Made by a program: the position numbers and the translations under genes. A stretch of 64,000 bases of DNA from Azolla caroliniana. Lineage: Eukaryota > Plantae > Polypodiophyta. The notes under the pieces are model-generated. The model was not told the origin of the DNA and searched no databases. It was given only the letters and a program-made list of their open reading frames with translations. Positions 27,490 through 56,374 of this stretch are shown here, piece after piece. The first letter of the stretch is position 1; every line of letters starts with the position of its first letter. The stretch spans positions 8,494,001-8,558,000 of the forward strand of contig JBHGNT010000021.1 in assembly GCA_043228905.1 (NCBI GenBank), in the 5' to 3' direction.

Positions 27490-27499
27490 AGGGGGGGTT

Positions 27500-27814: not shown

Positions 27815-27856
<42 letters not shown>

Positions 27857-29570: not shown

Positions 29571-29613
<43 letters not shown>

Positions 29614-29916: not shown

Positions 29917-29998
29917 TGCCATATCATGACACTATCCCCCCCTTAAGATGACGAGTGGAACGAGTCGACGCTGATTGAGGACCGGCTTTGTCGGGATA

Positions 29999-31471: not shown

Positions 31472-31910
31472 CTTTTTGTTAACTCTTAGGGCCGGACAAT
31501 GGCCTAACACAGGGTGTCTACGGAAGACACTTCACCAAAGGGTGTTACGGCAACAAGATTAGACTCAACGATTAATCCGACTTAATTAGGTTACTTAGCA
31601 TGATCGTCTTTAATAATCACACGCGTAAGATATAACAATGAATGCAGAACGGCAATTAACACAGAGAGATAACAACACTAAGCTTTATTAATTAACCGCT
31701 ATTCATTACATTGTATCCAGGCCTTTAAATAGGTTTCCGGTCTGTATTACAGAACGGTGCCATCCGCACTTGTTCGGGATCGGTTCGGATCCGGAACGGC
31801 ATACCGATTCTGGTCCGTCCGTCCACACTCGTAGCTTACTTACAACCATTCCTACTAATTAAATAACTCCCCGTTTCACACTCTGGACTCCTTTGCCGGC
31901 CGGTAACACA

Positions 31911-31927
31911 TGGCATGCTCGTGGGAC
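31911..31927 (+). promoter_or_regulatory. Inverted PBS-like site TGGCATGCTCGTGGGAC at the PPT position of element E
   Basis: 2 nt from the 3' LTR; no purine tract on the sense strand; homologous site at 43999-44013. Confidence 0.7.
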
Positions 31928-31962
31928 AGTACCTTGTACGTCGAATCCACAACCGACCCTTG

Positions 31963-34713
31963 CTATTCTTCGTCCAAAATATCCAGAATGCTTCGTTCGA
32001 GAGTCTCCAATGGTTCATCTGGAATTGGTTGTTGTTGCTGCTGCTCTGTTGATGTCTGCTGCGACGGGTCCGTTGGTGGCTGCTGCGACTGCTTCTCCGT
32101 TTGTTGCTCTGACACCGGCGTCTCCGTCGTAGTGGTCTCCGGTTGACTGGTTCCGGGCTGGCCCTCGGCCGGCGACGGTTCCTCATCACTAAGGTTAACC
32201 GTTGCCGCTTCCCGAACTCGGGACCGCTCGTAGCTTTCAAACTGGATTTGAGCGTCCAACCAATCATCGTCTAGCTGAGCTACGAGTTGTCGGACCTGCG
32301 CCAGCTGTTCATCCGCCAAGACTTGGAAGTCGTCGGCCAGCTCGTCCCGTATGGCGGTGAAGTCCTCGGAAGTCAACGTATAACAATCATCTCCTTCCTT
32401 CCGCCGGTTTGCCACGTCTGCCCGTAGCAATTGGAGGTCTGCCGCGTTTTGTGCCCACTTTGTCCACCATCTTACGGAGCTTTCGTCAATCAAGTGTTTT
32501 GTTTGATTCAACCATGCCCGAAGAATGGACTGAATCCGGCCCGTTCCCAATTGCGATTTGGTTTCCACCGCTTGTCGTTCCTCCTTCATTTGCTTGATGA
32601 TTTTGACGTTGTCTTCCGCCTGCTCCCTGTAATGCGTCAATTGCCTTTGATATGTGCTTTGTAATTTCTGCAATACCGTTGACGCTCTCTCCTTTTCTTC
32701 CTGCTGCTGCCTCTGGAGCTCCATCCGGACCTTCTCCACCTCGTCCAAGCGTCTTGTATTTTCTGCACGTTCGTCGGCGATCGCCGTCGCGGCCCGATCA
32801 ACTTCCTGCTGGAGCTCGACCATCCGTTCCTTATGCTCCGTTTCCAGCCGTTTGTAGTCCCGGTGCAGGTGCTCAAAATCATCTGTCTTTTGCTTGAGCC
32901 GTGCGTTGATTTGTCGACGGGCCTGGTCCTCGCGGTCCTTCTGCTGGTGGAGCTCTTCCTTTAGCCGTTCAATTTCCGTTTCCGCCGTCTTCCGCAGCTT
33001 GTCCTTTTCCTGCAGCACTTTGTCTTTTTCCTCCCTTAGCCGGTCGTACGCTTGATGGCCTTTCCGGAGGCTCTCCTCTGCCCGGCGGAGGTTCTTAGTA
33101 GTATTCTTTAATTCGGCTTCGACTGCTGTCTTCAATTCCCGTTCACGGCTCCTTAGCGCTTCTTGTGCGGCAAGTTCATCTCTCAATTCCGCAAGCTCCT
33201 GGGCTTGCGCCGCATCTCTTGCCGGAACGGTTTCCGTTGCCGGGGTCTTATTGGTATGTACAGGTCGATCCGTTTCTTTATTCTGTACACTTATCGGAGT
33301 CACCGGTGATTGGATCTGTGTTGCCATTAAGGCCATTTTGGCCATCTCTGTCGTGACCTGATCCAAGTCTTTTTCAAGGCACCGGATTCTGGACCGGGCC
33401 GTCTCTAGTTGTTCGGTTATGACGAGCAACCGTTCGCTTTGCGCTCTTTCTTCTGCCTCAATATACCCCACTGCTCCGACTATCTGTTCGCCTATCCACT
33501 GGAGCCACAGGCTACCGGTGCATTGTTGTGCTTGCACGGAGGTTTGACAGATGGGCTCACTTGTAGATGGGTGGTCCCATCTGGTTGCGCCGAGTTGCAA
33601 TTCCGTTTTTGCCCGTGGACCACCCTGCTGTCCTGGTTCCCCTTGCGCTTCTTCTTGGTTGGCCGAGGGAGGCTGCATTGACCTTTCCGGCTCTGGCGGG
33701 ATGGGACTTGGCGGTGTTGCCGGTGGTGCCGGGGCTTCTGATTCCGGTGCCATGCGCACCGGTTCTGGTTCCTCCCTTGGCGTGGGAGTCTTAGTATGGG
33801 GAGCCGGTGTTCCCTCCGTCTGAGGGTCCGAACGTTTCCCGGCTGCCTCAACGGTCCTTGCCGACGACCGTCGCTGGAGGTGCTCCGTAGGCTCCTCCTC
33901 TATTTCCTCTTCCTGAGTCCCGGCATTGAGTTTTGCCACCAAGGGGTCCGCTTCTCTATTCACCGGTCGGCGGAGTGTAACCTTTACGGGCCGTGCCGGT
34001 GGTTCCTCCTGCGCATCCGTTGGCCGCTTCCGGATGCCGCTCTCCTTTCCCTCCTGTTCTGCGTCCGCCGCCTTCCCCTTAGTGGCCTCAGAGACCAACA
34101 ACTGTTGTCGTTTGGAAGCCGTCTTTGGGGTGCCGTCCGCCACTCTTCCTCGCTTCTTGGGCTGGACGGGCTGGACGGGTGGCACAAGCAAGGTGAGCCA
34201 CTGCGTTACGGCGTGCCATATCCTCCGTCCGTCTCGGCTTTCTTTGCCGTCTTTGCCTCTGACGATCTCAATCGCCGCAGACAACCCGTCTGCGATCAAT
34301 ACCGGCCAATCCACCTTGATCCCTTCATAGGTGGCGATGATCATCCCTGCCCGGTTCTGCGGCATGACTGGGGGTCTAGGGTACACATGGCCGTATTCGT
34401 GGAGCACACGAGCAATCTCGCGGAACAACATATCTCCGCCGCCCTGTGTCCGGTAGCCCTTGCTGGCTAGGGAGTACTCACCAAAATACCTGATGAGTTG
34501 CTCCGGGGTCGGATTGTCAATCGTGAGTATGCCTCCCTCTGGGAGGCCTGTTAACGCTCGAATCGCCTCCGCCGTTATGACCTCTGTGTCGATTTCTTTG
34601 ATCACCTTGTCGGCTTCTTTGTGTGGTGGTACTTCCGTCATCATCAAGAAGCCCTCGAGCCCATGTTGCTTTAGCCATGTCTTGGCGGCTTCCGACAGCG
34701 TTTGCGGGTCCAT
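31963..34713 (-). CDS. Element E extra ORF3, 916 aa: globular N-terminal domain, Pro/Glu-rich linker, long coiled coil; function unknown
   Basis: Uninterrupted ATG-initiated ORF ending ~55 nt before the 3' LTR; N-terminal domain homologous to ORF 46104-46562 of element F. Confidence 0.85.
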   Translation of the reverse strand: MDPQTLSEAAKTWLKQHGLEGFLMMTEVPPHKEADKVIKEIDTEVITAEAIRALTGLPEGGILTIDNPTPEQLIRYFGEYSLASKGYRTQGGGDMLFREIARVLHEYGHVYPRPPVMPQNRAGMIIATYEGIKVDWPVLIADGLSAAIEIVRGKDGKESRDGRRIWHAVTQWLTLLVPPVQPVQPKKRGRVADGTPKTASKRQQLLVSEATKGKAADAEQEGKESGIRKRPTDAQEEPPARPVKVTLRRPVNREADPLVAKLNAGTQEEEIEEEPTEHLQRRSSARTVEAAGKRSDPQTEGTPAPHTKTPTPREEPEPVRMAPESEAPAPPATPPSPIPPEPERSMQPPSANQEEAQGEPGQQGGPRAKTELQLGATRWDHPSTSEPICQTSVQAQQCTGSLWLQWIGEQIVGAVGYIEAEERAQSERLLVITEQLETARSRIRCLEKDLDQVTTEMAKMALMATQIQSPVTPISVQNKETDRPVHTNKTPATETVPARDAAQAQELAELRDELAAQEALRSRERELKTAVEAELKNTTKNLRRAEESLRKGHQAYDRLREEKDKVLQEKDKLRKTAETEIERLKEELHQQKDREDQARRQINARLKQKTDDFEHLHRDYKRLETEHKERMVELQQEVDRAATAIADERAENTRRLDEVEKVRMELQRQQQEEKERASTVLQKLQSTYQRQLTHYREQAEDNVKIIKQMKEERQAVETKSQLGTGRIQSILRAWLNQTKHLIDESSVRWWTKWAQNAADLQLLRADVANRRKEGDDCYTLTSEDFTAIRDELADDFQVLADEQLAQVRQLVAQLDDDWLDAQIQFESYERSRVREAATVNLSDEEPSPAEGQPGTSQPETTTTETPVSEQQTEKQSQQPPTDPSQQTSTEQQQQQPIPDEPLETLERSILDILDEE

Positions 34714-35193
34714 GTCCGTGTCGAGGTCGGATTGCGGTGGCGAGGTTGGATGGTGATGAGAGTGAGATTGAGAGAGAGAGAGTTCAGAAGGCGGGGGTTC
34801 TCTGTGCGTAGGTTCTCATCTGATGTTCTTGCAGCGCCTTGCTGCTTCTGTGCTCCTGGGTTAGCGAAAGTAAAGGGTCTCCACGCGCAGTGCTTTTTCT
34901 CTGTGCATTCTGGCGCCTTTTTCGAGTGTGTGCACGTTGTGTACTAAAATAGCATTATGTCCTGTGGTGGCGCTTTAAATGCCCACTACGTACCTTTTCG
35001 CTCCTCGCTCTTTCATCCATTCATTCCTCGCTTTTGCATGATTACTTCGTTTTTTTTTTCATGATTACTAGTGTGACGTTACTTGTCCGTTGGTCCTCTC
35101 AGACCCTTACTGGCCTCATTCTCCCCAGTTACCGGCTTGCCGTCTCTGCTGTCTTGGTGGTTGCCGTTTCCCTCATCGGTGTCGGTCCTTTGC

Positions 35194-38000
35194 TCAAATG
35201 GGTTCCAACGCTTCCTGCGCTTGCCGTAACCCCCGGATTGCGTCTTTATCCGGTTCTGCTTCAGCCTCTTCTGGTTGCGGTAAGTATGGTGCTACTGCTT
35301 CGGCAATGTCAATTTCGAAGAGGGGTATGATCTTCGGGTTTTCCTGCAAGTACTGAGCTTCTTCTTTGTCAGTTAACCCTTCTAGCATGTTGACGCGCTC
35401 TGCATACAACGGTGTACATTCCTTGCCAGTGCTCGTCCTTGTCTGTGTTGGTACCCTTACCTTGGCTTTTCCTCGCCGGAAGGTAATTATATTTTTCCTC
35501 CAATTCTGTTTGATATGTGCCGTTTTCAACCACGGCCGCCCCAGCAATAGCGGGTATGCACCTTGTGCCTATAATTGTAGCACTACTGCCGAGATGTGAA
35601 ATGTATGACCGCCCACGGTGACTTCTAATTTCCGTATTAATCCTGTCGGCCGCACTGAGCTTGTATCGGTCATCCGCAACCAGAACGGACACGGCTCCCA
35701 CTCGTGGATTCCTAGGGCATCACATGTTCGGAGGCTTATTACATTCACCCCAAAGCCTCCGTTTATAACTGTGCCGGGGAGTTCTTTCCCTTTTACAATG
35801 GCAGTGATTACCGGACTGTTGGTGTCCACCACCGTTGGTCCCTCCTCCGGATTCAAGAAGAGTACCGGTGCTGGTGATGATTCTCCTGCCGTCATGGCCG
35901 TCTTCAGTCCTTCCGTGAATCTTGGCACGAGTTTCAGCAGTCTTCCTAGTGGCAACGTAGTCTGGCATTCTTGCAACGCCTGCCATGTCTCGTTCTCGGA
36001 GTGACTGCCGCTGGCAAGCCCTACGGTGTTCTCCTTTTGCCATTGTAAGTCTGTGACATTCTGCTCGTTTGCTTTCTTCACCCATTCCGTCGCTTGTTTC
36101 CGGATGGTCTCCTGCGTCTCCCATTCCTTGGCCATGCCCTTCGACCTTGTGGTCACCTGCTGCAGATCTGCCACCTCAGGGACTACCATATTTACCGCCG
36201 GTCGTTTTTCATAGCTCTTCACCAGGCATTGATTACTATAATGGCCTTCTTGTCAGCAGTAGTAGCAGTAGGCTTTCCGGGTATTGCTGGATTCGGCATT
36301 GTCTGTTGTACCCGAGGCAGGTCCTGTGGTACACGCGGGGTTTTGGGCCGGTTGGCTGCTTGAAGCTCCTTGTTCCGGATCTTGTGGGTAGCCGCCTTTT
36401 TTGAAATGCCGTTTTTTTTATAGCTCTTCTTATTGCGGTACTCTTGACGGGGTTGCCCGTTATATTTGCCCTATTCCTCCCATTGCTAACGATACCCGGG
36501 GGAGTGCTCTCGGTCGTAATGTTCGTATCGTCTATTGTAATCCCGGTACTGATCATGCCGGTCATAGTTATCCCGCCGATCACCGTACCGGACATCATTC
36601 TCCCGTCGATCGCCATACCGGACATCCTGTGCCGGTCGGTCGCGGTCCATTCGCCACCAGCGTTCCTCTTCTTCATCCTGGCTGCTGCGTGGGTCAATTT
36701 GTCGGACGGGCGGTGCTTGATGGTTCAATAGATTATACTTGCACCTATCCGTCGTATGGCCCTTGGATTGATAGATTACACATTGCGTCCTCATAGTGCA
36801 TTCTAGAGCCGAGTGTCCGGAATTTAAGCAGGTTGTGCACTGTATTGCTTGCCGAAACTGGAGGTCTTCATCGGACGGTAACGCCCGTTGGAGTGCTCCC
36901 AGTGTGAGCTAGGAGCTTGTCTTTTCTATCTCTCTCACCAGGTCAATGACCTGGTCGATGGTACTTGTGTGGAAGTCAATTACCGTGCAAACCGTGCGTA
37001 GGGGTTCCCGGAGCGCGTTTAGGAATATAGTCCGTAATTCCTCCTCCGGGGGTGCGCAGGCAAGCTGACTATGCATCCGTTGAAACCGGATGACAAACTG
37101 GGGAATGCTCTCCCCTGCTTCCTGCCGGATGGTATAAAATAAGCCTACCATTACGGTCTGGTCCACCTCCTTTTGGAAAAAATGCAAGAATTTAGGTCTT
37201 AAATCTGCAAAGGTGTTGATGGTAGACGGGTCCTGCGTCCGGCGCCATCTTGCTGCCGGTCCCTCCAATGTGACACCAAATTTCGCTATCTTAGAGCGTT
37301 CCTCTTCATCCGGGGTCAATCGCTGGGACACATGGTTGGCTTCCCATGTCTGTTCAAAGGCGTGCACATGAGCTTCCGCGTCTGGATCATCTCTATACAT
37401 GGAGTACTGGAACGGCATGTCATCGTCCGGTATCGGTGCGCGGGCTGGTAGTGTTGGTGCTCGTTCCAGGATTTTCTCCAGCGTCGGTGGTCTTTCCCGA
37501 TTTGTTTCCGGCGTTAGTGGTTTTTCCTCTTCTTTTGGTGACGGAGGCCTCTCCTCTTCGACTTCCGGTGTCAGAGGTCGCTCTTCCTCTGCTGGTTCCG
37601 GGGGTTCCAACGTTAGCACTTCCGGTTCCGGTGTCGGTAAGGTATCCGATCCTTCGTTCTCCGGTCCGCCCGGGGTTTCGTTGCTGTGACGGTAGTTCGT
37701 GTGCACGCTGTATTCCCCTTCGGAGTCCGATTCATACACTGGAAAGGCTTCTGCTTCGCCTTCTCCGTTTGCCAACACCTGGAGAAGGGATTCGGTTTCC
37801 CGGAGGCTGCTGCTGTCGTCCGGGTGCGATGTTTGTTGTAACCAGAGGGAGTCCTCCGCTACTCTCCGGATTACGTTGGAAAACGAGCGATCCGCTCTAA
37901 TTTCCTGGGCCGCTTGCTGGAAAGCCTCACGTCTCCTTTGCCTTTCGGCAAGGCGTCGAGTTCGATCTGTAACCAGGTCGTGCATTGATCTAGTCATCCA
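35194..38000 (-). pseudogene. Element E gag-protease, several stops
   Basis: Retrotrans_gag core (AEAHVHAFE..LEGPAARW..RQEAGESI), knuckles C..C...GH....C, protease VINGGFGVNVIS..LLGRPWL with the catalytic D read as N. Confidence 0.85.
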
Positions 38001-38033
38001 TTCGTGCCGTCGTTCGTTGCAAAAACAGGAATC

Positions 38034-38043
38034 GTGGTCGCCA
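38034..38043 (-). promoter_or_regulatory. Element E PBS, TGGCGACCAC (tRNA-Arg-like), 7 nt after the 5' LTR
   Basis: TTTTTGGCG context typical of Athila/Tat; 10-nt match to plant tRNA-Arg(UCG) 3' end as recalled. Confidence 0.6.
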
Positions 38044-38487
38044 AAAACTGTGTTAACTCTTAGGGCCGAACAATGGCCTAACACAGGGTGTCTACGGAAG
38101 ACACTTTACCAAAGGGTGTTACGGCAACAAGATTAGACTCAACGATTAATCCGACTTAATTAGGTTACTTAGCATGATCGTCTTTAATAATCACACGCGT
38201 AAGATATAACAATGAATGCAGAACGGCAATTAACACAGAGAGATAACAACACTAAGCTTTATTAATTAACCGCTATTCATTACATTGTATCCGGGCCTTT
38301 AAATAGGTTTCCGGTCTGTATTATAGAACAGTGCCATCCGCACCTGTTCGGGATCGGTTCGGATCCGGAACAGCATACCGATTCCGATCCGTCCGTCCAC
38401 ACTCGTAGCTTACTTACAACCATTTCTACTAATTAAATAACCCCCCGTTTCACACTCTGGACTCCTTTGCCGGCCGGTAACACTTTT

Positions 38488-41400
38488 GATTATCGAACAC
38501 TGGATCACCAGGATGAGGTGCAAGATAGGAACGCCGTGATAGTGCATTTGTCTTTCCTTGTTGCTTCCCTGGTCGATATGCGATTTTGAAATCAAAACGT
38601 GTGAGGAATTGAGCCCACCTAGCTTGCCGTCAATTTAGCACACGAGCGTTATGGAAATAAGAAAGATTCTTGTGATCACTGAAGACGATGACCTGATGTG
38701 GAGAGCCCTCCAAAAAATGCCACCATTGTACAAATGAATCCACGATGGCTAATAACTCCTTGTCATGTATTTCGTAGTTGATTTCCGCAACATCGAATTT
38801 ATGCAAATGGAAAGCCACAGGATGTAACTCTTCTTTATGTCCTTGTTGAGAAAGGATGCTACCGAGGGCGAAATCTAATGCGTCGGCCTACATGATGAAT
38901 GGTTCGCTTGTATCCACATGAGCTTGAATAGGTGCTGATGTAAAGGCTTTCTTAAGATGCCGAAAAGCCATGTCTGCTTCATTGGACCAAAGAAATGCTT
39001 GTCCCTTCCTTGTAAGTTGTGTGAGAGGTAAAATAATCTTCGAGTAATCCTGTATAAACTTGCGGTAGAAATTAGCGAAACCTAGAAAACATTGTACATC
39101 TCGTACTGACCGTGGAATTTGCCACTCTAGCACAGTTTGGACTTTAGCTGGATCCATGGAGATGCCCTTTGAGGAGATAACGTAGCCTAGAAACTCCACT
39201 TGCTTGCAGTCAAAACTACATTTTTCTAGCTTGGCATAAAGACCATTCTCATGGAGTCGATTTAGTACTAATAGTACATGAGAATCGTGTTGTTCCTGGG
39301 TGTTCAAATAAATCAATAGATCATCCAGATAGATGATCAAACAGATATCCAAGAGGTCTCTGAATATATCATTTGGCATGTGTTGGAAGACTACGGGTGC
39401 ATTGGTTAGACCGAACGGCATAACAGTATATTCGAAATGCCCATACCATGTGCGGAAGGCGGTCTTCCATTCATCTCCCGTCGGATCCGAACGAGGTTAT
39501 ACGCTCCTCATAGATTGATTTTTGTAAAAAACTTGGCACCATTAACTCGCTCTAAAAGACTTGATATAAGAGGAAGTGCATACCTATTCCAGATGGTGAC
39601 CTTAGTTAAGCCGCGGTAATCAACGACGAGACAAACTGAGCCATCTTTCTTCTTGACAAAGAAGATGGGTGCTCTGATTGGAGATTTCGAATGACGAATA
39701 AACCTGCTTGCCAAGTTCTCCTCTATGTAGGCTCGAAGGACTTCTAACTCGGTGGGTGACAAGTTGTAGATTGGTCCCCATGGTGGCTCTGCTCCTGGTT
39801 GTAAATCGATGGGACAATCGTAGGGACGATTATGAGGAAGAGTACCGTCTTTTACCTTGTCAAATACGTCGGCGTAAGGATGATATTTCGCCGGAAGTTG
39901 CACTAAGGATTCCTCCTTAATATTGCTGGAAGGATGTACTGATATGGCAAATAGGAACATTGCCTCCTTGTGTCCTTCTTCACGTAGTTGACGTAGTGAA
40001 ATGGTCGAAACTCGGTGAGTAGATTCTTGGGGTTGTCGATATCAAACTTCTCTTGTTCGCTAATCTTTGTTTGGATTATGTAGTTCAAACCAAGGTAATC
40101 CCAGGACAATGAGATGCTTTGGACTACTAATAATATTAAATGATACTACACACACAAAACTACCTAGGACAACTTGAATGGGTTCTGACTCTTCTACAAT
40201 ATTCCCGGAAGCAATGGGACGACTATCAATGACTACTACAGATGTGGGGCAAGGAAGTTTTCTTAAGGATATCTGAGAAGCTTGGGCCAAAATTTCGATC
40301 CATGAAACAAGAATTGGCTCCGGAATCTAAATGTGCTAGGACTTGTACTAAGGGAGTACTTTTAGTAGTAACCATGACTTGGGCTAGGAACATATTTCTA
40401 ACTTGCTTGGAGGGAATGGAACCACTAATGGGTTGTACAGATCTAGGGCCGTCCAACCAAACGGCTCCTATTTTGGCTGGACTCAATCGTTTAACTCTTC
40501 ATCTAATTGACTAAGGATTTCAAATTTGTTTGAGATACTTGGGCTATTAGTACTATTAATACTATCGAACACTCTATTAGTACTATTGATACTATTAGAC
40601 ACTCCTAAGGGAAGAATTGACTCTGTTTTAGTACAGGCTACGATTTTATTTACTTGTCTTCTTGGCCTATGGGGACAATTGATTGCGATATGCCCTGGTC
40701 CACCGCAATAAAGACATAATTGATTTGCATGACGTTGTTGCTTTTCTTATTCCGATAACGGGCCACGTCGACGCATGGTCTCAATCTCCATCGGTGTCGG
40801 AGTATTTGCTTGAGGTACGTCACGTGTGAACGCTTTAGCCGTGATTGAGGCGTATGTGGGCTCTGGCCTAGAGCGTGGTATTTGTAATTGACATTTGGAA
40901 CGCCGTTCGAAAAGGTGGTTGTCACATCGGACTGCTCGATTGATTGCCTCCGTAAGAGATTTTGGTTCTTCGGGGAAGGTTAAAAGTAAATCTTTTACAT
41001 CGTTTCATAGGCCGTAGCAAAACTGCTCCATTAGTACCTGATCATCCTAGGGGATATTGGAGGCGAGTAGACGGAAATCCGCCGCGTAGGCAGAGGCTGG
41101 ATGATTGCCTTGACGCAATTGTTGGATCTTGTTGATCGCTGTCCTAATGCTGTTAGTGACTCCAAAGCAGGCTTTAAACTCACTAATAAAATCTTCAAAG
41201 TTATTAAGCAAGGGCGATTATTTTTCTAGAAGCGGAGCGAAGCATGCTAAGGCTGAGCCGCTAAGCAACGTGCCTATTAGGCCGACTCAGGATGCATCAG
41301 TGGGGTATCGGGAAGGATGCATTTGGATGACTAATCGTATCTGATTAAGGAGTCCCCTGAATTGCGATCGCGTTCCATCAAATTTCACAGGAAGTCCAAT

Positions 41401-41640
41401 CTTCGGCTCTTTATGAAATCCTTGGGGACTTGATCCTTGTTGTTGCAATGCTGCTTCGAGTCGTTGTACCTGTAACGCTAACTCCCCATGTTGTTGCTGC
41501 GTTTGTTGTTTTTCTAGAGCGATTTGTTGTAGATCCCCTATCAGCCATTGGTTTTCTTGTTCCAAGGCAACAAATTTTTCTTTTAGGCATTGTAGCTCGG
41601 AGAAAACGGATTGATATTCTTGGGTGCTAATAGTAGCCAT
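38488..41640 (-). pseudogene. Tcn1 gag-PR-RT-RNase H, frameshifted
   Basis: EPKIGLPVKFDG (gag), LDSGANSCFMD (PR), MPFGLTNAP and YLDDLLI (RT), NYEIHDKELLAIV and SDHKNL (RH). Confidence 0.9.
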
Positions 41641-41693
41641 AGTAGGGAAAAGGGTAGGAAGATGAGGGAGAATGACAAGTAGGCTTGAGGAGA

Positions 41694-41705
41694 AAATTGG
41701 TTCAA
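41694..41705 (-). promoter_or_regulatory. Self-priming PBS (TTGAACCAATTT) complementary to the predicted RNA 5' end in the LTR (41902-41913)
   Basis: No TGG tRNA PBS; exact 12-nt complement lies about 33 nt downstream of TATAAAA on the minus strand. Confidence 0.75.
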
Positions 41706-42313
41706 ACTGTCAGGAATAGTACTAAAGAAGAGATGTACTATTAGTACTAAGAGGACGGGACTGCGTAAGATTCTCAAGAGAGAGAGAGAGAGAGAAGAGG
41801 AGAGAGAGATAGCGAGGATGAGAGAGAGAGAGAGATGATGATAACAACTAATATATTATGTGAAGGATAAGTACAAATGGCTAAGAGGCTTAAGATTGGT
41901 GTTGAACCAATTTGGTTCAACATAATGCCTAGTGCCTTCTTTTATAGTGTTCTCAGGAGTAATCCTAAAGCTTCTAGAATGTTCCAGAGAAATCTGGAAT
42001 ATACATTAATTTCCTATAATAAAACTTAAATGAAAATAATATGCTACGTATTACAATAGATGGTATAATGGTCAAGAGATCGAGTCATATAACATAAGGT
42101 CATGGGTTCGAGTCTTGCCATATCATGACACTATGTTCCATGTACAATTGTTTTGATTTTGTGTTGGATGAGATTTTGTCCTCTATCCAAGAAGAGGCTT
42201 GTACATGCAAACAAGATTGAGTTGGCTATGATTATTTGCTGGTTGTTGATGGTATTTTGATGAGTTTTCTTCTCTGATTAATTGGGAGTCTTGTATACGC
42301 ATATTCTTTCAAC

Positions 42314-43530: not shown

Positions 43531-43998
43531 TTGTTGTTAGGTCGACAATTACTACTTTGCCGACATAGTATAAGACGAACGTTTGTACCGAACGTTCTAT
43601 CAAGAAGTTGTGGTTAGAAGAATAGATATTAATTATTTGTAAACTTATCGGTGATAACAGACACCGAGATCGTGACTTATGTAATATAGTTTAGACAAAA
43701 AGAAATAGATGGCAAAAAAGTAATTCGTACACAGAGATTTCCTAACCAAACTTTATATTACTAATTACAACGATAGATCTTTACAATGCCTTTGGTTTCC
43801 TTTTATAGGTAACCCGAAGGTCTTTTCTCATCAAGAAATCCTATTGCCTATAATTATCAAGAATTACAAAACTTCGTAACTAACTATGTCCTATTTGGCT
43901 ATCTGTTGAGTCATCGATCTGAACTGTCGATCTGACTCTGACTCTGACTCCGAACATCCTTCCGACTCCGACGTATCTATACTTGTTCGGGTAACACT

Positions 43999-44013
43999 TG
44001 GCACGCCCGTGGG
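43999..44013 (+). promoter_or_regulatory. Inverted PBS-like site TGGCACGCCCGTGGG at the PPT position of element F
   Basis: 2 nt from the 3' LTR, same geometry as element E. Confidence 0.7.
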
Positions 44014-46643
44014 CTAGGACGTTGTCCGGCGAACCCACAGAACCCTTTTACTCCTGCTGCTCGGAGGAAAAATCCTCCTCCATCTCCAAATCATCGTTTG
44101 CGTCATCCTGCAAAATGTCGAATAAGGAGGGTTCTGCTTCCTGTGTTGCCACGCTTACGTCGTCTTCATCTTCATCTTCGGTGTCCTCTCCGTCGTTTAC
44201 CTGGCAGGCTTCTTCAGTTGATGGTCTTAGCTATGTTGAATCCGGTGCGCCGAGTCCAGGGTTTTGGTTACTCTTTCGGCTTCGATATTGTCTAACTCGA
44301 CCGATGTCTCGACATCATGCTTGTCGAATTCCTGCATGATTCGGTTAATTTCTTCTTTAAAATAAGCCGCCATGTCGTATAGGTCCTTAGCAATATCTTC
44401 CTGAATTGTTGCCATTGCTTCCTCCAACATCTTGAGGAAGCCTTTGCCTTGCACTTTCCTATTTTCTCTAAAGCTCTACGGCTTGCATCGACCATGTTTG
44501 CCAACCCTTCTCCAATGATTCATTGACCAATTTTAGGGTGTTAATTCGGTGACGTCTAATGATCGCTTGAACCCTATCCTGAGTCATGCTAGCCTCAAAC
44601 TGTGTTGTTGCTAGTGTTTTCCGTAAATAAATGATTACCGCATTGGTATGTCCTTCTGCCTGCATCAGTTTAGCTTGTGCCACTAAGAGGTCAAGTCGCC
44701 TTTTCTCGGAGGCCGTTTGAATCTCTGCACATCGGTTTTCCAGCTTCGCTTTCTCTTCATTCCAGTCGTTTTGCTGCTGGATCATTTTTTCATTGATTTC
44801 GTCTATCAGTTTGTCTTTACCAGCCAACTGTGTTGTAAAACAAATCTCTTGGCTCTTGACATACTCTCAGTTCCTCGACTTGTTGCCTTGTAGCCTCTTG
44901 CTGTTGGGCTAACTATCGACGTAATTCTTGTATTACATTATCTTTTTCCCCTAAAGATCTGTCAGCCGCCGTTTTTGCCAACTGTAATCGAGCCTCCATC
45001 TCTCTGGACCTGTCCTCGGTCTTTTCTGCCCTAATTTCTGCCTCTCTTCGTGCTTTTTCAGCTTGGTCCAACCTCTTTTGAAATTCCAAATCCGTCTCCA
45101 AAGGTTGTCTTTGTGACTCTGGCTATAATATCTGTTCTCTCACTTTTTCTAGAGCCACTTGTTCTTCTTGCAGTTTATTCTTCAACTGCTAATTCTCTGC
45201 CTGCATCCGTTTATACTGTGCATTAAGCACATCTGCAACTGCTGTAGCCTGTTTGTATAATTCGGCCATATCCCTGGCCGCTTTGCTAGCTTTTTCATAT
45301 TCTCGGTGGACTTCCACCAATGCCTCATGTAATGGTGGTATCTGAATGGCTTCACCTCTGTTTTTAGCATTTCGATGTCGACCAAGTCTATCCACTTCCG
45401 CTTGCTCGTTTGGTTCGATAGCTCCACATAATGACTTCTGGATCATTATTTGAACTCTGTGCTCTTGTGCCATTCTTTCCGACACTTCTTGAAGTCTTTT
45501 AGCTAACCATTCTACCAGTTCATATGATGTTTCGAACTACAGAATGGCAGCTAGCTCATGTGCTATTGCTGGGATGTCGGAAAAACCAAGTGCGTCTTGC
45601 ACCGTTGCCATTGATGCCTGCCCTTTTTGAACTCGTGACGTGTCATCTGGATTGACACGAGGTACTTGTGTGCTTTGGGCGGCTTGATCGTTAGTTCTCT
45701 TTTTCTTCTACGCAGGTTGCTCTTGCTTTGGTCTATAGTATCTTTGGGACCATTGTTTCACCCTGCGTTGCTTCGGCGGTTGCTGGTCAATGTCGACTCG
45801 TCTTGACTCCTACTTCTGTGACGATTGCTGGTCAATGTCGACTTGTCTCGATTCCTGCTGCTCTAACGGTTGCTCGTCTATCGTCCCTTGTTGTTGCATC
45901 CTCTGTGATTGGAAATTAGACGGTTGAGTCGGCGATTGCTAGGCAAGTTTGGGTTGCGGTATCGACTGTTGAGACTGCGTCGACTGTTGTTGTTCCGATT
46001 CTTGTTGGTGCCTTGGGTCCGGTTTGACAAATTCGGTCTGAGTGGTATCGTCCTGCGTTGATTCTTCTTCCCTCCACTCTTCCTGTTGGACTTGTTGTCG
46101 GGTTCAGGATGATTGTACCTTAGGCGGCCGACACACCTCTGATCGATTTTCTGGCTCTGAAGTCGGAAATAATACCGATAACCAACGAGCAAAAATCGGC
46201 TTCATTGGTTTTCCTTTTTGAACTCCGTTTAGTTGCTCTCTCAGAGGATCTGCCGACAGTAGCCCCCAATCGAAAGCCTCACCTTCATAAGCGGCGATAA
46301 TAAATCTGGCCCTCTTTTTGGGCATACAATAGAATCTGGGACTAACAAACCCTACTTCCAATAAAAATTTTGCAACTTCATGAAAAAACACATCCCTACC
46401 TCCTTGTGTCTGATACGCTTTGGTAGAGGGCGAATATTCACCGAAATAGAACCAAAAAACATCCTTTGTGACCTTGTTGACAACGTCAAACCCACCTCTT
46501 GGCATCTCCAACACGGCTCTTACCTTCTTATTCGTGATTGTCGAGACATCGATTTCTGCCAACAGAGCTTTCGCGTTCGGGTGCAGCTCTGATTCTGCGA
46601 CTTAAAAAAATCCCTGTAACTTATTGCAAACGAGCCAATGACG

Positions 46644-47387
46644 TGACAAAAAATACACGCTCACTAAGCACAACGCTCGGCCACAACCGAGGCTAGCATC
46701 AAGACACACGACACAGTAAAGAGAAGAGTACACAGGATGTTAACGTGGAAAACCCAAACTAGGGAAAAACCACGGCAACCCACAGACTGCAAACTATCAC
46801 TATATCACAATGTACAATAGTAAAGCACCGAGGCAACGACCTCGAGCTTGCTATCTTCGCCACAAGCGGCGGTTACAACAAAGGCAGCGACCTCTTCCTA
46901 TCTCTGTCTCTCTCTCTGTACACAGTTACGCATTCAAATCTTGCACCAACAAGAATGACAACTACGATTCCACTAAGTTTGCCCTAAGTCATATTTATAC
47001 TAATATGAGTTTTCAGCTATTTACAAATATAGCCCCGATGGACTCTCAGAAAACATATTTACGAATATGTCCCTTCATCTGGTTAGCACTTCTCACCGGG
47101 CCTTCACCATCCGGCTCTTGCCGGGTACTCGTCATCTGGTTCTCACCGGGTCTTCCGTTGCCGGGTACTCCACATTCGGTTCTCACTGGGTCTTCCGTTG
47201 CCGGGTACTCCACATCTGGTTCACACCGGGTCTTCCGTTGCCGGGTACTCCACATCCGGTTCTCACCGGGTTTTCCGTTGCCGGGTACTCCACATCCGGT
47301 TTCGGCCTCGGCCTATCGTCTTGGGCCGAGTTTCCTCATAGACATTGTTCTTCTCACTTCCCATCTGGAGGGACCTGTTTCCTAACA
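46644..47387 (-). mobile_element. Solo LTR of the same Copia family as 10868-28126, with ~40-bp internal tandem repeats
   Basis: Reverse complement of the LTR (TGTTAGGAAACAG...TCA); flanks TGACG/CGACG (TSD with one transition); splits the start of F ORF3. Confidence 0.88.
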
Positions 47388-48013
47388 CGACGCAAGTTGT
47401 TAGATACGACAATCAGCATGTTGTCGTCGTCGATTGACAGAACATCACTTAGTGGTGGCTATGAGAAACGTTGTGGGCTATGGCGACTAAAATCAGAAAA
47501 CCTGTAAGCTCGAATGCGTTTTTGCTTTTGTGGTGAAACAATCATTACAGAAATAGGTTTTAAGAGATTAATTTTTTGCACGATGCCTAGGGAATAAAAG
47601 TACTATTAATTTTGTAATGACTATGCGTACAAGTGGAGTGATGGCTAGAAATAGTAATAATGACTAATAGAAATATGCCTCCACTACTTGTACTTATAGT
47701 CTTTTGAAATTACTCCAAGAATCTCTTCGTGATAGTTAGTTATGATTTGGCAAGAAAATATTCTATAGTTAGTTTATTTTTTATTTTTTATTTTACTTTT
47801 CTTCTGATTCAGCCTTGAATGGGTTTTTCGGCATGGGTCCATGATATGGTTTAAGCTGGAAACCATTTACCCATTTCGGTAAAATCTCACTTGATAGGGC
47901 TCCCAATTGATATGTACCAGTTTTATTGTTCACAATCCAAACTGGTCCCGTCCATCTATACCGAAGTTTTCCTGGCATCGCCCCCATCTTGGTCTGGAAA
48001 ATTAGTATTCATT

Positions 48014-48390
48014 TGTTGAGGGATGGGGGGTGGAGCCAAGAACGGCTCCACCCCCTTGCCAAGGGGGTTGAGCGTGAAGAAACTAGAGAGAAAGAGAAAG
48101 AGAGAAAGACAAAACAATGTTGAGAGGAAAACTAGTGTTCTCATTCATGTCCCCTATGGTGGGGTTATATAGGTACATTCCATGAGGGTTACAATCCAAG
48201 AACATCCAATGAGGGTTGTAAGTTAGTTACATAACCTTGTAACAACCTACCCACTTTACATATTAATATACTCACACTTATGTGCACATGTGCACATACA
48301 CTTACACATGACTTTTAATACAAAGACTTTACACTTATCTCGTACCATCACTTATACACTTATACATGTATAATCCCACAGATAACAAGA
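48014..48390. mobile_element. LTR-like segment of an unidentified family that truncates element F
   Basis: Starts TGTTG, has 'ttatataggt' TATA-like motif and ends near ..TAACA; no TSD or partner. Confidence 0.3.
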
Positions 48391-49310: not shown

Positions 49311-52300
49311 TGTTGTGGAGAAAACCGTCCCTAAGCGGAAACCGCGTATAACGTGCGTAAACCGGCCCTTACATGTGGGCACAAGTTTTGTTCTATAGTA
49401 CGTAGATAGGTACAAGTCGGCTGAGGTGAAATCCTAAGTAGCACGCATTCAGTAGGGAGAAAATCAAGGCATATTTTCGGACAGGGAATAAACATGATGT
49501 AACGGGTGGTAACGGCCTCCCTCCTTGGGCTATAAAAGACAGGGAGAGGTATTGAAAGGATAACTACGTTTGTGGAGGACGAAGTGCTGCCGGACTGGAA
49601 CCAAGCACTTTTCCTCTCCTCTGTCGTCTCCATAATCGTTCTGTGTAGGCTTCGGGAGGCCGACTTTGCTCTGCCGGACGCCCGAGTTCTCCCGGCAGAG
49701 CCTCCATCTCGCGTTCTGTGTGTGTGTGTGTGTGTGTGCGTGTGCGTGCGCGTAGGCATCGGAACCCATCACTCGTCGGCTTGCTGGTTGTAACACGTTG
49801 ATTTATATATACATATACATTGGTTCTGTCTCCATCTCGTGTTCTGTAGCTAGTTGCAATTCCTGTGATTCTGTGGATCTGTGCGCGTGCAAATTACATC
49901 GCTACTTTCCTTCCCCTCCCCTCATTCGGTTATTTCTCGGTTCGAGGCCCTGGTGGTCCCACCTCGTTCTCCACACACATGCATAACAACTCGACATATT
50001 TGGTGAACCCGACGTGAACAGGCGGTAGAGGAATAGAAAGATGAGAGGGTCGGATCTTGTAGAAGCCATGGCTTCGGCTGTGGATCGAATAGTGAGTGTG
50101 CGTGAAGGCACATGCGCCCTTGATAGGGCTATTGAAGCGGTCATTGGCACGATAGGCTGGTTCGGGGGCAAGGACGCCACGAGCTATTTGGAGACCTACC
50201 GAGCTGAAATGGTGATGAGGGACATCCCGCAGGATAGACGACTGGCCGGATTCCCTCGGGTGGCGATGCCGGGCATCCACGCGGAGGTGCTTGAGGTACG
50301 GGGTAAGAGTCGAACTTGGGAGGAGTTCGAAGGTCGGCTCCTTGAAAAATACGGCCTTGATGACGCGCTTCGGTTGTCGAAGCAGGACTTCACGGAATGG
50401 GTGGAGACCCCCGAAAAGGGGAGAAACGCGTCGGTGCTCCTTCGGGAGTTTGAAGAACGCTTCGCACAACTTTCGGCGCTGGACCGGACCGTGCTGGAAC
50501 GCAAGGGACCGGGAGCAAGTGGGCTTCTTGCTAGAGACCGATGACAGCCTAACAACTGATTGGGCCGTGGTAAAGAGATTCTGCGGCCGTTTTGACAAAC
50601 GGCGTGAGTGGGTCGATAAAGGCTTGATGGGGGCGGGTTCTGTTGCGACAAGGAAGGTCGAGGTACCCCCACTAGCATGAAGGGAAGAGACCCGAGATTG
50701 GCTCGAGCCCGGCTCGACTTCAACCGGCATGGTCAAAGGCTCGTCCGGAGGAGCGGCTCTGGAGGAGCTGACTCAGATGGTGTGGGACCTCCAGATTGCG
50801 CAAGCACGGAAGGACGACGACGAACAAGTCCGTGACCGAAGGCCTCCGACTGGGAGCCGGTGCTTGTGGTGTGATGTGGTCGGCCACGCCCGAAAGGACT
50901 GCGGGGACTTCGCCGAAGCGATAAGAGCTAACGTGGTGTACCTATGGAACGGTCGGGTGCACGCTAGCGAGACCCGGAGGGCCCTGGATCTGAATGTCGG
51001 ACAAGGGGGTATGAAATGACTGATGGAAGAAGCGGCGGCTCGTCACGCCGGGACCATCCACTACTCGGCGTTGGCTGGAATCTGGGTCGGAAGCGATGAA
51101 GACCGGAAGACTAAGGAAGCTGGATTCTGGTCGGTGATGCTGGAAGGCCTCGCCGGCGTAAGGCTGAAGAAAGAGGAAGCGAACCGCGCGGAAAGATGGG
51201 TCTGGGAGGTAATTGGGTGGAGTGAGAAGAGAAAATGGGCTCCGTGAAAGCCGCGTGCCAGAACTACGAGGTTCTGCTGGAAGACAAACGAGCGGGAAAG
51301 ACCGGGGGGGCCGGACCCTCACCACGGTATGAGACCTGGTTCGGGCCGAAGCAGAGTGATGTCGGTGCATCCGGCGCACTAGACAAGGCCAAGAAGGCTG
51401 GTTATCGGTTGAGTACGAATATCGAAAGGACCATGGACCTATGAAAGGTCCTGGAGGAACGGATCCTCGACAGCAAAGTGGAGCTGTTGCTAAGGGAAGT
51501 GCTCGGTATCGCCAAGAAGGGGTTCCACGACTCCATCGTAGACTTGGTGAAGCGGAAAAGGCTTTCAACGGAGCCGGAGCTAGAGAAGCCGGTGGAGGTG
51601 TGAACGACGCACTTAGAAGACATGGCCCTGGAGGACAAATTGGCGGAAATCCACTACTCGAGGCTACATTGGGCTAGGGCCACTACGGAAACCCCTGTTC
51701 AGATCGGGGACGTCCAGGAGCCGGTGGTGGCGTTGGTAGACCACAGTTCGGAGATCAACTTGATTTCCATGGACTTCGACAAGAAGGGAAAGTGGCCGAT
51801 CAAAACCAAGCACGGGTGGATTATACGGGCAGCAACGCGCACCACGGAGGAGCTACACGGAGCCTGCCCGAATGTACGAGTGAAAATCGGCGATGTCGAG
51901 ATCGACCAACACTTCTTCGTGAAGGAGACGTCCTCGCATCCGGTGATACTCTGAGAACCGTACATCACGGCGGCGCGCATGGAGACAAAGGTGCTGGACA
52001 ACGGGTCGGCATATGCACGAGTGAAGAGCCAAGATGGGCGTCACTTGGTTCAGTTCCTAACGGTGCGACCGAACCTTGAGCATAATCGCGAGACCCTCGG
52101 TGCTGAAAACCGAGGGGATTTTTAGAGAGGGCTATTAAGGAGTGGGGCCGCGATAGTCCGGACACTGTGGAAAAACCCCACAGATGAACTATAGGCGAAA
52201 AGACCTGTACCATAGGAAGAAAATTTTGGTTCTTCGATAGCAGAGGTTGTACGATAGTCGGCGTAGTTGGCTGGGAAAAGAAGCGGGCGGAGGAGCGACT

Positions 52301-55300
52301 TCGGGCATGGGGGGTCCTCAGCCTTGAAGATGAAATCAACGGAGCCATGGAGGCAGTCTCTTTCAACGACACCTTGGGGAAGTTACGGGAGGTGTTTAGA
52401 GAAGGCCTTAATGAGGACTGGACGATTCCGGTATGTTCGGAAAAGATGTACGAAGTCATCACCGACTTCGGTAGTGGACTCGAGTCGAATCGGACGGCCC
52501 GAGTGGGTACGAAGTACAAGACTGTAGACCGGAAGGTGAGGCCAATCGCGGCACCCTTGCCGGAGGACAGTGAGTTACGGATCAAGGGGGTCGCGTCGAA
52601 CCCAAGTTTACGAGATCCGGCCAGCATGGGACACATGTTCACCGACATAACGCTACGGGAGCTCAAGATAGGTGGGGGTGGTTTTCTACTGGCAACGGAA
52701 GAGGACCGGTTTCAGAGAATGCTCGGGAGGCACGGGAAGGCTTTCGCATTCTCACCGGAGGAGATCTGGTGTGTAGACCCGAAAGTTGTGGAACCAATGG
52801 TGATCTTCACGGTACCGCATGTGCCGTGGAATCTCAAACCAATTCCGGTACCCAGAGCTCACATCCCGAAGCTAATGGAACTACTGAAACAGAACGTGGA
52901 GATGGGCATCCTTGAACTATCGAGTGCCCCATATTCGAATCGGTGGTTTACCGTGCTGAAGAGGAACGACACACTGCGCTTCATACAAGACCTGCAACCG
53001 GTCAACAAGGTGACCATTCGTAACGTAGGTATCAGACCGACCATCGATGAGTTCGTGGAGGCCTACGCAGGGAGGTCGATCTACTCGGTGGGGGACCTGT
53101 ACTCAGGGTACAATCAGTTCCAGCTAGCCATAGAGAGCAGGGATGTCACAACGATGCGAACTCCTTTCGGCCTAGTTCGGATGTGTACCCTGCCACAAGG
53201 AAGAACGAACTCGGTGGCGCACATGGTGCATGCGATGAACAAGGTGTTGAGGGACTACATCCCGGACATCACCATGCCGTTTCTTGACGACATCCTGATC
53301 AAAGCGAGTCCGGTGGAGGACAAGGACGAGTCGGTCAGGCCCGACGGTTGCCGGAGGTTCGTGGCGGATCACATCCGCGACTGCGAGAAGGTGCTACAAA
53401 GACTCGAGAGTGCGCGACTCACCTTCTCAAGAGAAAAATCAGCCTTCGGACAGCCGGAGCTCCTGGTAGTCGGACACCTGTGCGGGCCTTTCGGCCGAAA
53501 GCCGTCCTCGGCAAAGGTAGAAGCCATTTCCGTGATGAAAGATGATTGTGGGTCGGTCACCGAGGTGTGAAGGATCCTTGGGGCATGTGCGTTCTATCAC
53601 ATCTGGATTCCGCACTACGCGCATGTCGCGGAACCGCTTTAGGGGTTGCTGAAGAAAGGGCGTAAATTCGAGTGGAGAGACGAGCACACGGAGTCGGTCC
53701 GGAGACTGAAGGAGGCGCTCGTCGCGGCACCGGCTCTCTGGAAAGCGGTTTACGGTAAGGAAGTCCCCATTTACGTGACGGTGGACACGAGCCCGACCGG
53801 GATCGGGTGGGTGATCAACCAGGAAGACGAAGACGGCGTACAGTTCCCGAACCGGTTCGGGGCAAAGGTACTGAGCGAGCGGCAGCGAGGATACACCCAA
53901 ATCAAGCGCGAACTATGGGGTATCGTTTCAGCAATTAAGGCTGACAAGGACTATCTGATCGGGACGGAAGTGATCATCGAGACTGACTGCCTACCAATTC
54001 TAGGTATGGTTTCCAGATGTGTGACTCCGGACCTGGCAATGCTCAGGTGGATCGTGTACATCAAGTCCCTAAACCCGGAGATACGGCACATCTCCGAAAA
54101 GGATAACGCCATGGCCGATATGCTTTCAAGGGCGAGGTTCAACGACGAGGACGGCATGGTTTCAGATAACGAAGAAGTTGGCGATGACTTCTTCAGGTCA
54201 GCTAACGTAACAACAAGAAAGGGGAGCACTCCGACGCTTAACGAATTCGACGAGAGCAAGTACGACGGAAAGTGGCTCCAGATTGGCAGGTTCCTGAAGA
54301 CAATGACACCGGATGTGGCGTGGACGAAGGAAGAGGCCAACCGAATTCGGAAGAAAGTGTACCGATTCTTCCTACGGGACAGGAGCATATGGAAGCACCC
54401 CAAGAAGAGAAACGTCATCCCGCTCCGAGTGGTGGAGAAGAAAGAGGAACAGGAAGAATTGTTGACGGCGTACCACGAGAGTCCCTGGGCCGGACACCGC
54501 AGGACGTGGGCCACATTCGAGAAGCTAAAGGGGAAGTACTGGTGGCCGGGACTATACCGGGACGTGCATCGGTTTGTGACGACTTGCGAAAGCTATCAGG
54601 TGCACTCCATAGTTTGACATCGGGACAAGCTTCACCCGACCTACCCTTCGATCGGTCACTTCAAGTGGATGGTGGATCTGGTGACGATGCTGATGAGGGT
54701 AGGGCAGATGCGGTATCTGGTGCTGGCTCGGGAGGACCTGACGAACCAGCTGGAAGGCCGTTGTTGTAGAACAAAACGATTGCAGCCGTGTGCTGATTTT
54801 TTATCGAAGAAGTGGTATGCCGGTATTGGTGCGTAGGTAAGATCGTGGCCGACCGCGGGGAATTGGACGCGCAAGAGGCGGAAGAGTTGTTTGACCGGCT
54901 AGGAACTAAACTCTTGCTCACCACGACGTACAATCCGGAGGCGAACAGGAAGGTGGAGCACAGACACAAGCCAATCGTCAAAGCGTTAGTACAGGCGTGT
55001 GGAGGGCAAGTCGAGAATTGGCCGCGGCTCTTACCTTACGCGTTGTGGGCGGACCGAACTACGCATAGTTTGGTAACCGGGTTCATGCCGGCAGAGCTAA
55101 TGTATGGGTAGAAGCCGATCATGCCAATGGAGCAGACAATCTCCTCATGGGCCATGGTGGGCTGGAAAGACGAGATGAGCCAGGAGGAGCTATTAGCAGC
55201 ACGGATTCGGCAACTGGAGCGAAGATCGGAGGACGTGGACCGAGCCGCGGAGAAGTTGCAGAGGGCGAGGGTAAAGAACAAAGGACAGTTCGACCAGATT

Positions 55301-56374
55301 CACTGACTGAGACCAAAGAAGATCGAGGAAGGCGACTGGGTGTACGACAACAACCTCGATAACCAGCATAGGGCAATGCGGAAGTTTGCAAGAAGGTGGT
55401 TCGAGCCTTATGTGGTGACAAGCACCAACGACAATGGGACCTACCATCTCGCGGAGCTCGACGGGACGAGGATGCCGGTACCGGTGGCGGGGAAGAGGAT
55501 CAACACATTCAAAAAGTGGCACGAGGCTGAACCGGACCTGGACGACCTGGATGGCGACAACGACCGACACACAACGGATGTCGATACAGAGGATGAAGGG
55601 TGAGCGTGGGCCGGTCTTCTCCAGCCAGAGTCTAATTTTGGCACATACCGGTGGATGCGGGGTTAGGTGGGGGCGGATGTCGTGGAGAAAACCATCCCTA
55701 AGCGGAAACCGTGTATAACGTGCGTAAACCGGCCCTTACACGTGGGCACAAGTTTTGTTTGTATAGTACGTAGATAGGTACAAGTCGGCTGAGGTGAAAT
55801 CCTAAGTAGCACGCATTCAGTAGGGAGAAAATCAAGGCGTATCCCTGTCCGAAAGGACAGGGAATAAACATGATGTAATAGGTGGTAACGGCCTCCCTCC
55901 TTGGGCTATAAAAGAGAGGGAGAGGTATTGAAAGGATAACTACGTTTGTGCAGGATGAAGTGTTGCCGGACTGGAACCGAGCGCTTCTCCTCTCCTCTGT
56001 CGTCTCCATAATCGTTCTATGCAGGTTTCAGGAGGCTGACTCTGCTCCACTGGACGCCCGAGTGCTCCCGGCAGAGCCTCCATCTCGCATTCCATGTGTG
56101 TGTGTGTGTGTGTGTTTGTGTGCGTGCGCGCAGGCGTCGGAGCCCATCACTCGCCGGCTTGCCGGTTGTAACACCTTGATTTATATATACATAAACATTG
56201 GTTTTGTCTCCATCTCGTGTTCTGTAGCTAGTTGCAATTCCTGTGATTCTGTGGGTCTGTGCGCGTGCGAATTACATCGCTAGTTTCCTTCCCCTCCCCT
56301 CATTCGGTTATTTCTCGGTCCGAGGCCCCAGTGGTCCCGCCTCGTTCTGCACGCACGCGCATAACAACTCGACA
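49311..56374 (+). mobile_element. Full-length decayed Gypsy G4, same lineage as G1
   Basis: LTRs 49311-49996 and 55678-56374 with (TG)n; 4-bp TSD ACGT at 49307-49310 and 56375-56378; Trp PBS 50001-50018; PPT 55666-55677. Confidence 0.95.
50041..55603 (+). pseudogene. G4 gag-PR and pol, many stops and frameshifts
   Basis: Fragments are homologous to G1 proteins (WARATTETPV, WNLKPIPVPRAHIPK, FLDDI, VDTSPTGIGW, YALWADRTTHS). Confidence 0.92.

Follow-up and report, generated by a model that had tools for sequence, protein, structure and literature searches.

Element F and its surroundings

The window, that is, the whole 64,000-nucleotide stretch of Azolla caroliniana DNA that we analyzed, reads GGTAACA, then CT, then TGGCACGCCCGTGGG (43999-44013) at 43990-44013. 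The first of these is the end of a long terminal repeat (LTR), as GGGTAACA closes an LTR at 43996 and is followed by CT and TGGCACGCCCGTGGG. This LTR belongs to element F. What remains of F is the 3' half of a Ty3/gypsy element on the minus strand, with the following parts.

43532..43996, minus strand: 3' LTR of F, with U3 at the high coordinate; its minus-strand start is TGTTACCC
43997..43998, unstranded: 2-nt spacer, CT on the plus strand, between the LTR and a tRNA-complementary site
44060..46643, minus strand: broken ORF3 of F (extra 3' ORF, sense with pol), a conserved N-terminal domain followed by a coiled coil
46644..47387, unstranded: later insertion splitting F, solo-LTR-like and related to repeats at 23125-23411 and 27536-28117
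about 47817..48020, minus strand: C-terminal tail of the F integrase, 63% identical to that of the family (E value 2e-30)

We compared F with a full-length relative, L061. F was colinear with the 3' end of L061 (89.7% over 43532-46638 and 85% over 47387-48007), and its LTR was 92.7% identical to each of the two L061 LTRs. The insertion at 46644..47387 appeared as a gap in this alignment and was also detected by self-BLAST. The N-terminal domain of ORF3 (46242-46646, minus strand) showed 42% identity over 135 amino acids to the ORF3 of element E, which also lies in the window (E value 2e-29). Because ORF3, the integrase tail and a TATA-like CCTATAAAAGG inside the LTR (43799-43809) all read on the minus strand, and because of the colinearity with L061, the orientation of F is minus, as the first-pass annotation had concluded from ORF3 and the integrase tail. 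Therefore, the motif beside the LTR sits inverted at the position where a polypurine tract (PPT) is expected. The converse reading, in which 43535-43996 would be the 5' LTR of a plus-strand element, did not hold: 43532-43996 is a 3' LTR of a minus-strand element. The LTR end given earlier stands, and its start moves from 43535 to 43532. The remainder of the 5' half of F was not found in the window or in the following 40 kb.

The window holds several other elements. Two Phygy-like elements lie in opposite orientation at 12266-19592 and 49311-56374, with target site duplications (TSDs) GCGT and ACGT and with G-rich PPTs. A gypsy element with a chromodomain occupies 29486-42134 and carries E nested in its pol; a reverse LTR related to it is located at 59023-59897. 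A LINE with endonuclease and reverse transcriptase (RT) domains was seen at 19518-22934, a copia element at 23128-28127, and a tandem repeat array, largely palindromic too, at 61744-62696.

Complementarity of the inverted site to tRNA-Arg(UCU)

The host tRNA-Arg(UCU) genes end in CCCACCGGGCGTG, and positions 43999-44047 of the window are complementary, in blocks, to the 3' part of this tRNA.

43999..44013, plus strand: block 1, complement of tRNA-Arg(UCU) positions 76-66 and 64-61 on minus-strand cDNA, with one G skipped
44014..44029, plus strand: hairpin of 16 nt, in place of the complement of tRNA positions 60-58 (including A58)
44030..44039, plus strand: block 2, complement of tRNA positions 57-48 (T-loop and 5' strand of the T-stem)
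44043..44047, plus strand: block 3, CCCTT, complement of the 3' strand of the anticodon stem, present in some families only, including those of F and E

Aligned with the tRNA and its CCA, the site thus shows 11 matching nt, 1 skipped, 4 matching, the hairpin, and 7 to 10 matching nt. A tRNA-complementary motif 2 nt from the 3' LTR, as first described for F, can be read directly in the sequence; the extent of 43997-44016 given for it was too short, as the complementarity continues to about 44047. An A at position 11 of the tRNA complement had also been a candidate and was ruled out: the host tRNA has C there, and the five matches with A were CpG-decayed copies. The tRNA-Arg(UCU) genes and decayed copies of them form tandem clusters in the genome assembly searched (G000), at C4:19.51-19.59 Mb, C11:0.69-0.70 Mb and C22:1.43-1.51 Mb.

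A pattern combining the LTR end with the motif gave 1,317 exact matches in G000 and 0 in a reversed control, so the motif is not a chance occurrence; the genome count for block 1, the gap and block 2 together (763 matches) ruled out chance as well. Among the best 30 matches to the F LTR, 2 were 5' LTRs and 28 had the site beside their U3, although the query included flanking sequence, which favours 3' LTRs. All 28 site-bearing matches had the CT spacer. The 2-nt spacing is kept in F, E and most families, and one non-autonomous group has 4 to 5 nt instead.

We built a column profile of the site from 149 contexts. Between family variants, the tRNA-matching blocks were approximately 90% identical, a figure inflated by the collection of sites through those same blocks, compared to 29 to 32% in the adjoining LTR and downstream sequence. 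The length of the hairpin was fixed, and five of its six pairs changed on both sides across 18 variants. Its covariation score was reached by 0 of 500 shuffles (0.39, compared to 0.04 to 0.12 in slid controls), with the proviso that related sequences can exceed shuffles. Block 3 was present in 55 of 151 sites and in 0 and 2 in two downstream control windows; these copies are related and so do not count as independent. Together, the covariation of the hairpin and the conservation of the blocks against diverged flanks support selection on the motif, which had been proposed from the divergence between the surroundings of F and E. The LTRs of these two elements had been described as having no obvious alignment beyond their termini. 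Indeed, no significant local alignment was obtained (best E value 0.083), but the global score of -156 was about 5 SD above shuffles (-262 +/- 21), so the two LTRs are remote homologues.

The commonest fixed variant was a C-to-T change at site position 36 (38/151 sites), which gives a G-T wobble on the minus strand and an A-C mismatch in the stem of the sense RNA. At six loci (L243, L244, L253, L256, L232 and L255), a T fills the skipped position, resulting in a mismatch with the tRNA instead of a gap.

A Ty3/gypsy clade without a PPT

We fetched 20 stretches of the F family, 5 of which had both full LTRs (9.1 to 9.3 kb). All 5 carried the inverted site at the 3' end, no PPT, and a normal primer binding site (PBS) 11 nt after the 5' LTR; the PBS of the family is a 13-nt match to tRNA-Arg(UCU). 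The absence of a PPT noted earlier for F itself was borne out: of the 20 nt preceding the 3' LTR, 11 are purines in F and 9 in E, compared to 13 to 15 in three control elements from the window that terminate in G-rich tracts. Among the clade copies scored, 13 of 13 had 9 to 11 purines in this stretch, and none had a PPT abutting the 3' LTR. Pfam searches on L086, L061, L063, L078 and L080 revealed the domain order gag-protease-RT-RNase H-integrase, followed by ORF3 in sense. An archaeal-type RNase H domain (aRH) was not detected by Pfam on L086 and the F-family copies, which have only the RT-type RNase H. The LTRs are of the TG...CA type, with 5-bp TSDs (GCAAC in L061, ATTAT in L080 and CTTTT in E). 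The ORF3 of the clade is 1,000 amino acids long and matched no Pfam family; an atlas search gave weak leads only, to Athila ORF-1 and Transposase_32 (0.84).

Element E, the other member in the window, has these parts.

31477-31908 and 38051-38482: LTRs of E, with TSD CTTTT
31911..31958, plus strand: inverted site
38031..38043, minus strand: 5' PBS, complementary over 13 nt to tRNA-Arg(UCG) and separated from the LTR by 7 nt

The E family, too, has autonomous members. Every full-length member that we recovered, from many families, had the inverted site in the primer position, and all site-bearing families placed in an RT-RNase H tree formed one clade (16 rows, 100/100). Full-length relatives with gag, protease, RT, RNase H and integrase carry the site; the trait thus belongs to a pol-encoding lineage, as the first-pass annotation had argued. 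Its description of F as an independent second example needs qualification, since F represents a second family but not a second origin: E and F fall in one clade, with RT-RNase H 80 to 82% identical. Otherwise, the earlier reading of the F motif is supported.

In a tree without REXdb-labelled rows, liverwort and fern proteins surround the clade, whose sister group consists of pine and angiosperm elements. An Athila-like relative in the same genome, with RT approximately 53% identical, retains a G-rich PPT in the one copy of eight (L415) that had both LTRs in the fetched range; its PBS is presumably of the tRNA-Asp type. Since this more distant family keeps its PPT, the loss in the clade is derived. 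Window elements A and G, with NCGN TSDs, are 24 to 26% identical to the clade in RT-RNase H.

L415 also bears on the polarity of the elements. If an antisense RNA were the template, the inverted site would be the first-strand PBS and the 5' PBS would prime the second strand, still with two tRNAs. The inverted site does have the canonical 2-nt spacing and the longer complement, compared to 5 to 11 nt from the LTR and a length of 13 to 18 nt for the 5' PBS, and the tRNA copies described below leave the polarity unfixed. However, the TATA-like box and all ORFs read in one sense, and L415, which bears a PPT, has its PBS at the same 5' place after a similarly long spacer. We consider this reversal extremely improbable.

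The clade is Ty3/gypsy by its domains, LTRs and PBS but lacks the PPT feature. Its nearest named proteins (of liverwort, fern, pine and angiosperm elements) appear to lie on the Athila/OTA side of the tree. The only aRH-bearing protein in that tree forms a long, unplaced branch. As far as the available portions of PMC6317226 (Neumann et al. 2019) go, the clade resembles Athila in the absence of aRH, the 5-bp TSD, the single gag-pol frame, the extra 3' ORF and the long spacer before the PBS. It differs in its Arg PBS (Asp, Asn and Ala dominate in Athila), in its sense ORF3 (the 3' eORF of Athila is listed as reverse), in its size of 9 to 10 kb and in the missing PPT. The tRNA-Arg PBS is shared with TatIII, Ogre and Retand; unlike Tat, the clade is without aRH. 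Phygy is similar in being non-chromoviral and in length (7.7 to 10 kb) but has a 4-bp NCGN TSD, a mostly tRNA-Trp PBS and no extra ORF, and Selgy has a 4-bp TSD, a length of about 5 kb and a tRNA-Ala PBS. By the REXdb table of that paper, the clade therefore fails Phygy, Selgy and Tat and agrees with Athila only in part. It may be related to the moss Tat-like elements of PMC4408406, which, in the part of that paper available, also lack aRH but are reported without extra ORFs, unlike the clade with its 1,000-amino-acid ORF3.

A metagenome scan for the motif returned 94 stretches. Judged by eye, an LTR-like CA end precedes the motif at a distance of 2 to 5 nt in 78 of the 80 matches listed, and 51 have an antisense ORF3 behind the motif. 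A wide host range does not follow from these contigs, as some of them are near-matches to G000 families. A scan of viral contigs found no relative, and a search of protein representatives found distant relatives only.

tRNA copies at U3 ends and proposed plus-strand priming

We searched for perfect tRNA complements beside LTR ends, which gave 94, 11, 32 and 25 matches in overlapping sets; 30, 11, 30 and 4 of the loci fetched, respectively, were read in detail. Seven independent insertions had a DNA copy of tRNA-Arg(UCU), 18 to 63 nt long, fused to the U3 end. Their G000 coordinates are given below.

C2:12014872: 57 nt, 0 mismatches, CCA, spacer CA; 3 local copies
C2:12742741: 56 nt, on a 5' LTR with PBS Arg(UCG); the spacer CATA is that element's own inverted-site spacer
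C20:881284: 18 nt, on a 5' LTR, then an Arg(UCG) PBS
C16:17527350: 18 nt, U5-spacer/tRNA/U3 junction, F-related family; 2 local copies
C6:16780295: 63 nt
C3:8094146: 18 nt, then resumed, with 7 hairpin-like bases inside the copy
C11:1420822: 18 nt; spacer one base off the family's inverted-site spacer

The element behind the copy at C2:12014872 is of E type, full-length (9.9 kb, 12005006-12014869) and has PBS Arg(UCG); the copy adjoins its 5' LTR. All seven copies have the CCA, which is absent from the tRNA genes, as well as the base that the element site skips, and none has the full hairpin. Because the skipped base is present and the full hairpin is absent, they were made from the tRNA itself. 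The first three are at the outer end of the 5' LTR and cannot derive from the first primer, since the 5' PBS there is Arg(UCG). The copies are joined through the spacer of their own family's inverted site, with the one-base difference at C11. Our count omits L237, L247 and L250, where the end is ambiguous, L104 and L166, which have 10 matching nt at the U3 end, and L190. The U3-tRNA junctions were seen in one assembly, and none of the contigs of two public runs bridged the one junction checked. Sites with TGGCACGCCC-TACG (2-nt spacer) and the perfect 18-nt sites of L105, L191 and L143 had been candidates for plus-strand sites; they proved to lie at the U5 end, in a small non-autonomous family.

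Copies of tRNA-Arg(UCG) at the U5 ends of the same E-type families gave 141 matches. Exactly 18 nt was the stopping point in 21 of the 30 read (a further 4 of 30, of a second isodecoder, fell outside the scoring), and longer copies were found at L363, L365 and L367. The modified base m1A58 is a known block for RT copying on retroviral primers, and the 18-nt stop fits this block. U5-end matches to tRNA-Arg(UCU) numbered 60, including normal 18-nt PBSs. Copies at U3 ends are thus far rarer than those at U5 ends (7 events compared to 141 and 60 matches).

Several other junctions were recorded during this reading. L463 (C1:14810619) has an entire 76-nt tRNA-Arg(UCU) copy at a U5 end. At L423 (C2:2289286), a U5 end with an 18-nt tRNA copy passes directly into TTTAGGG repeats, which resembles the addition of telomere repeats to the end of a cDNA. 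L367 (C597:60-118) is a fold-back in which an LTR U5 and approximately 40 nt of tRNA-Arg(UCG) copy run into an inverted LTR. L168, L191, L216, L357 and L449 are members of a small non-autonomous family that has the two primer sites; its inverted-site spacer is 2 to 5 nt, its 5' PBS alternates between Arg(UCU) and Arg(UCG) with an unchanged flank, and some of its LTRs contain telomere-like CCCTAA repeats near U5. The LTR of L449 (C3:8094146 region) directly follows the 5' half of what we take to be a tRNA-Phe gene. Finally, at L205, L206, L211 and L224 (C2:18769768, C3:8087663, C4:14909590 and C9:2128293), an 18-nt PBS copy at the U5 end runs into an antisense inverted site, in some cases with partners from different families. 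These are likely inverted chimeras produced by mis-transfer of plus strong-stop DNA; such junctions, a visible cost of the arrangement, would result from occasional annealing of strong-stop DNA to the wrong site.

The sequence evidence makes it likely that this non-chromovirus Ty3/gypsy clade without a PPT primes its plus strand with host tRNA-Arg(UCU) at the inverted site. According to our model, the first strand transfer and clearing by RNase H would expose the site on new minus-strand DNA. tRNA-Arg(UCU) would then pair through its acceptor and T arms, with the hairpin looped out opposite positions 58-60, and RT would extend the tRNA primer across spacer, U3, R and U5. RNase H would normally remove the tRNA, and integrase would trim the spacer. 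If removal failed, RT would copy the tRNA onto the left end, to position 59 or to the anticodon/D arm. Mis-annealing of strong-stop DNA may be kept in check by three features, namely the base missing from the site, its hairpin and the choice of another isoacceptor for the 5' PBS; this is speculation. Self-priming by pairing of the two ends was ruled out as a conserved function; the two end motifs of E match different tRNAs and are not complementary to each other.

Alternatively, the primer may be the element's own RNA, if a CCA-ending tRNA-like hairpin survived RNase H or were cut after CCA, as a substitute for the PPT; no second packaged tRNA would be required. The sense RNA does resemble a tRNA 3' end, with a T-arm-like stem of -16 to -22 kcal/mol in several families; in F this is a stable hairpin with a free CCA end (-16 kcal/mol). 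Moreover, 103 of 151 sites keep a possible 5-bp stem (86 in register and 17 shifted by one base), and the hairpin covariation is silent on DNA versus RNA. Conversely, the L086 family, the youngest we looked at, with identical LTRs, retains GTGGG but only three of the five stem pairs, and the C-to-T variant disrupts the sense-strand stem. The pieces retained at U3 ends are real tRNA sequence, not that of the element, as found with a search pattern that was itself a perfect tRNA complement. The same junctions could also arise by template switching, from a primer derived from the element to a free tRNA, over 11 nt of shared sequence. On balance, the retained-primer junctions favour a tRNA primer over a tRNA mimic, and we regard priming by the element's RNA as unlikely.

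Under tRNA-Arg(UCU) priming, U3-end copies should be rare if they are located beyond the LTR and mostly eliminated. Their rarity is also compatible with mispriming now and then and speaks for another reading, in which the site binds tRNA for packaging, strand transfer or tRNA-fragment regulation, tRNA priming is accidental, and a cryptic purine tract is the usual primer. E and F have a short AAGGG approximately 45 to 50 nt upstream, and five of six copies contain purine runs of >=11 at 147 to 367 nt upstream. However, the position of these runs is not conserved and L061 has none, AAGGG belongs to the tRNA-like sequence (block 3), and the U3 boundary, which is set by the end of the plus-strand primer, lies 2 nt after CCA. 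We therefore consider a cryptic tract highly improbable.

The proposed step would amount to a second use of the PBS/tRNA mechanism of Ty3 or HIV-1, in place of the PPT step. In the available portions of PMC5371799 and PMC6317226, priming of the plus strand by a PPT is presented as the rule in retroviruses and LTR retrotransposons, and the primer variety described concerns the minus-strand primer. As in Ty3 and HIV-1, to the extent covered by the accessible text of PMC5371799 and PMC13332604, a tRNA binds the 5' PBS, RT/RNase H and integrase are present, short spacers lie beyond the CA ends, and strong-stop DNA copies part of the tRNA (12 nt in Ty3 and the 18-nt PBS in HIV-1); split primer sites are known from Ty1 and Ty3. 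Unlike the clade, which has no PPT, Ty3 and HIV-1 begin their plus strand at the RNA of an element PPT. The 3' PBS segment of Ty3 is in sense and aids minus-strand priming (same sources), whereas the site of the clade is inverted, abuts U3 and leaves tRNA copies there. We found no description of an inverted PBS replacing a PPT in the literature searched, and closed papers, Repbase or the REXdb supplements may hold one. The tRNA-Arg(UCU) copies at the U3 ends of seven independent insertions are new.

Together, these results suggest that in an abundant and recently active clade, a second tRNA primer site probably replaced the PPT, so that both strands are primed by tRNA, in some families by two Arg isoacceptors, with the retained-primer copies as a record. 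These junctions make the idea of tRNA priming directly testable. These elements would be misread by LTR annotation tools that expect a PPT or that infer orientation from whichever PBS is closest to an LTR. If the model is true, the PPT is replaceable, as shown by a successful clade with >1,300 sites in one genome and copies with identical LTRs, and the clade would be a natural system for what RT and RNase H need in starting and removing a plus-strand primer and in setting the U3 end.
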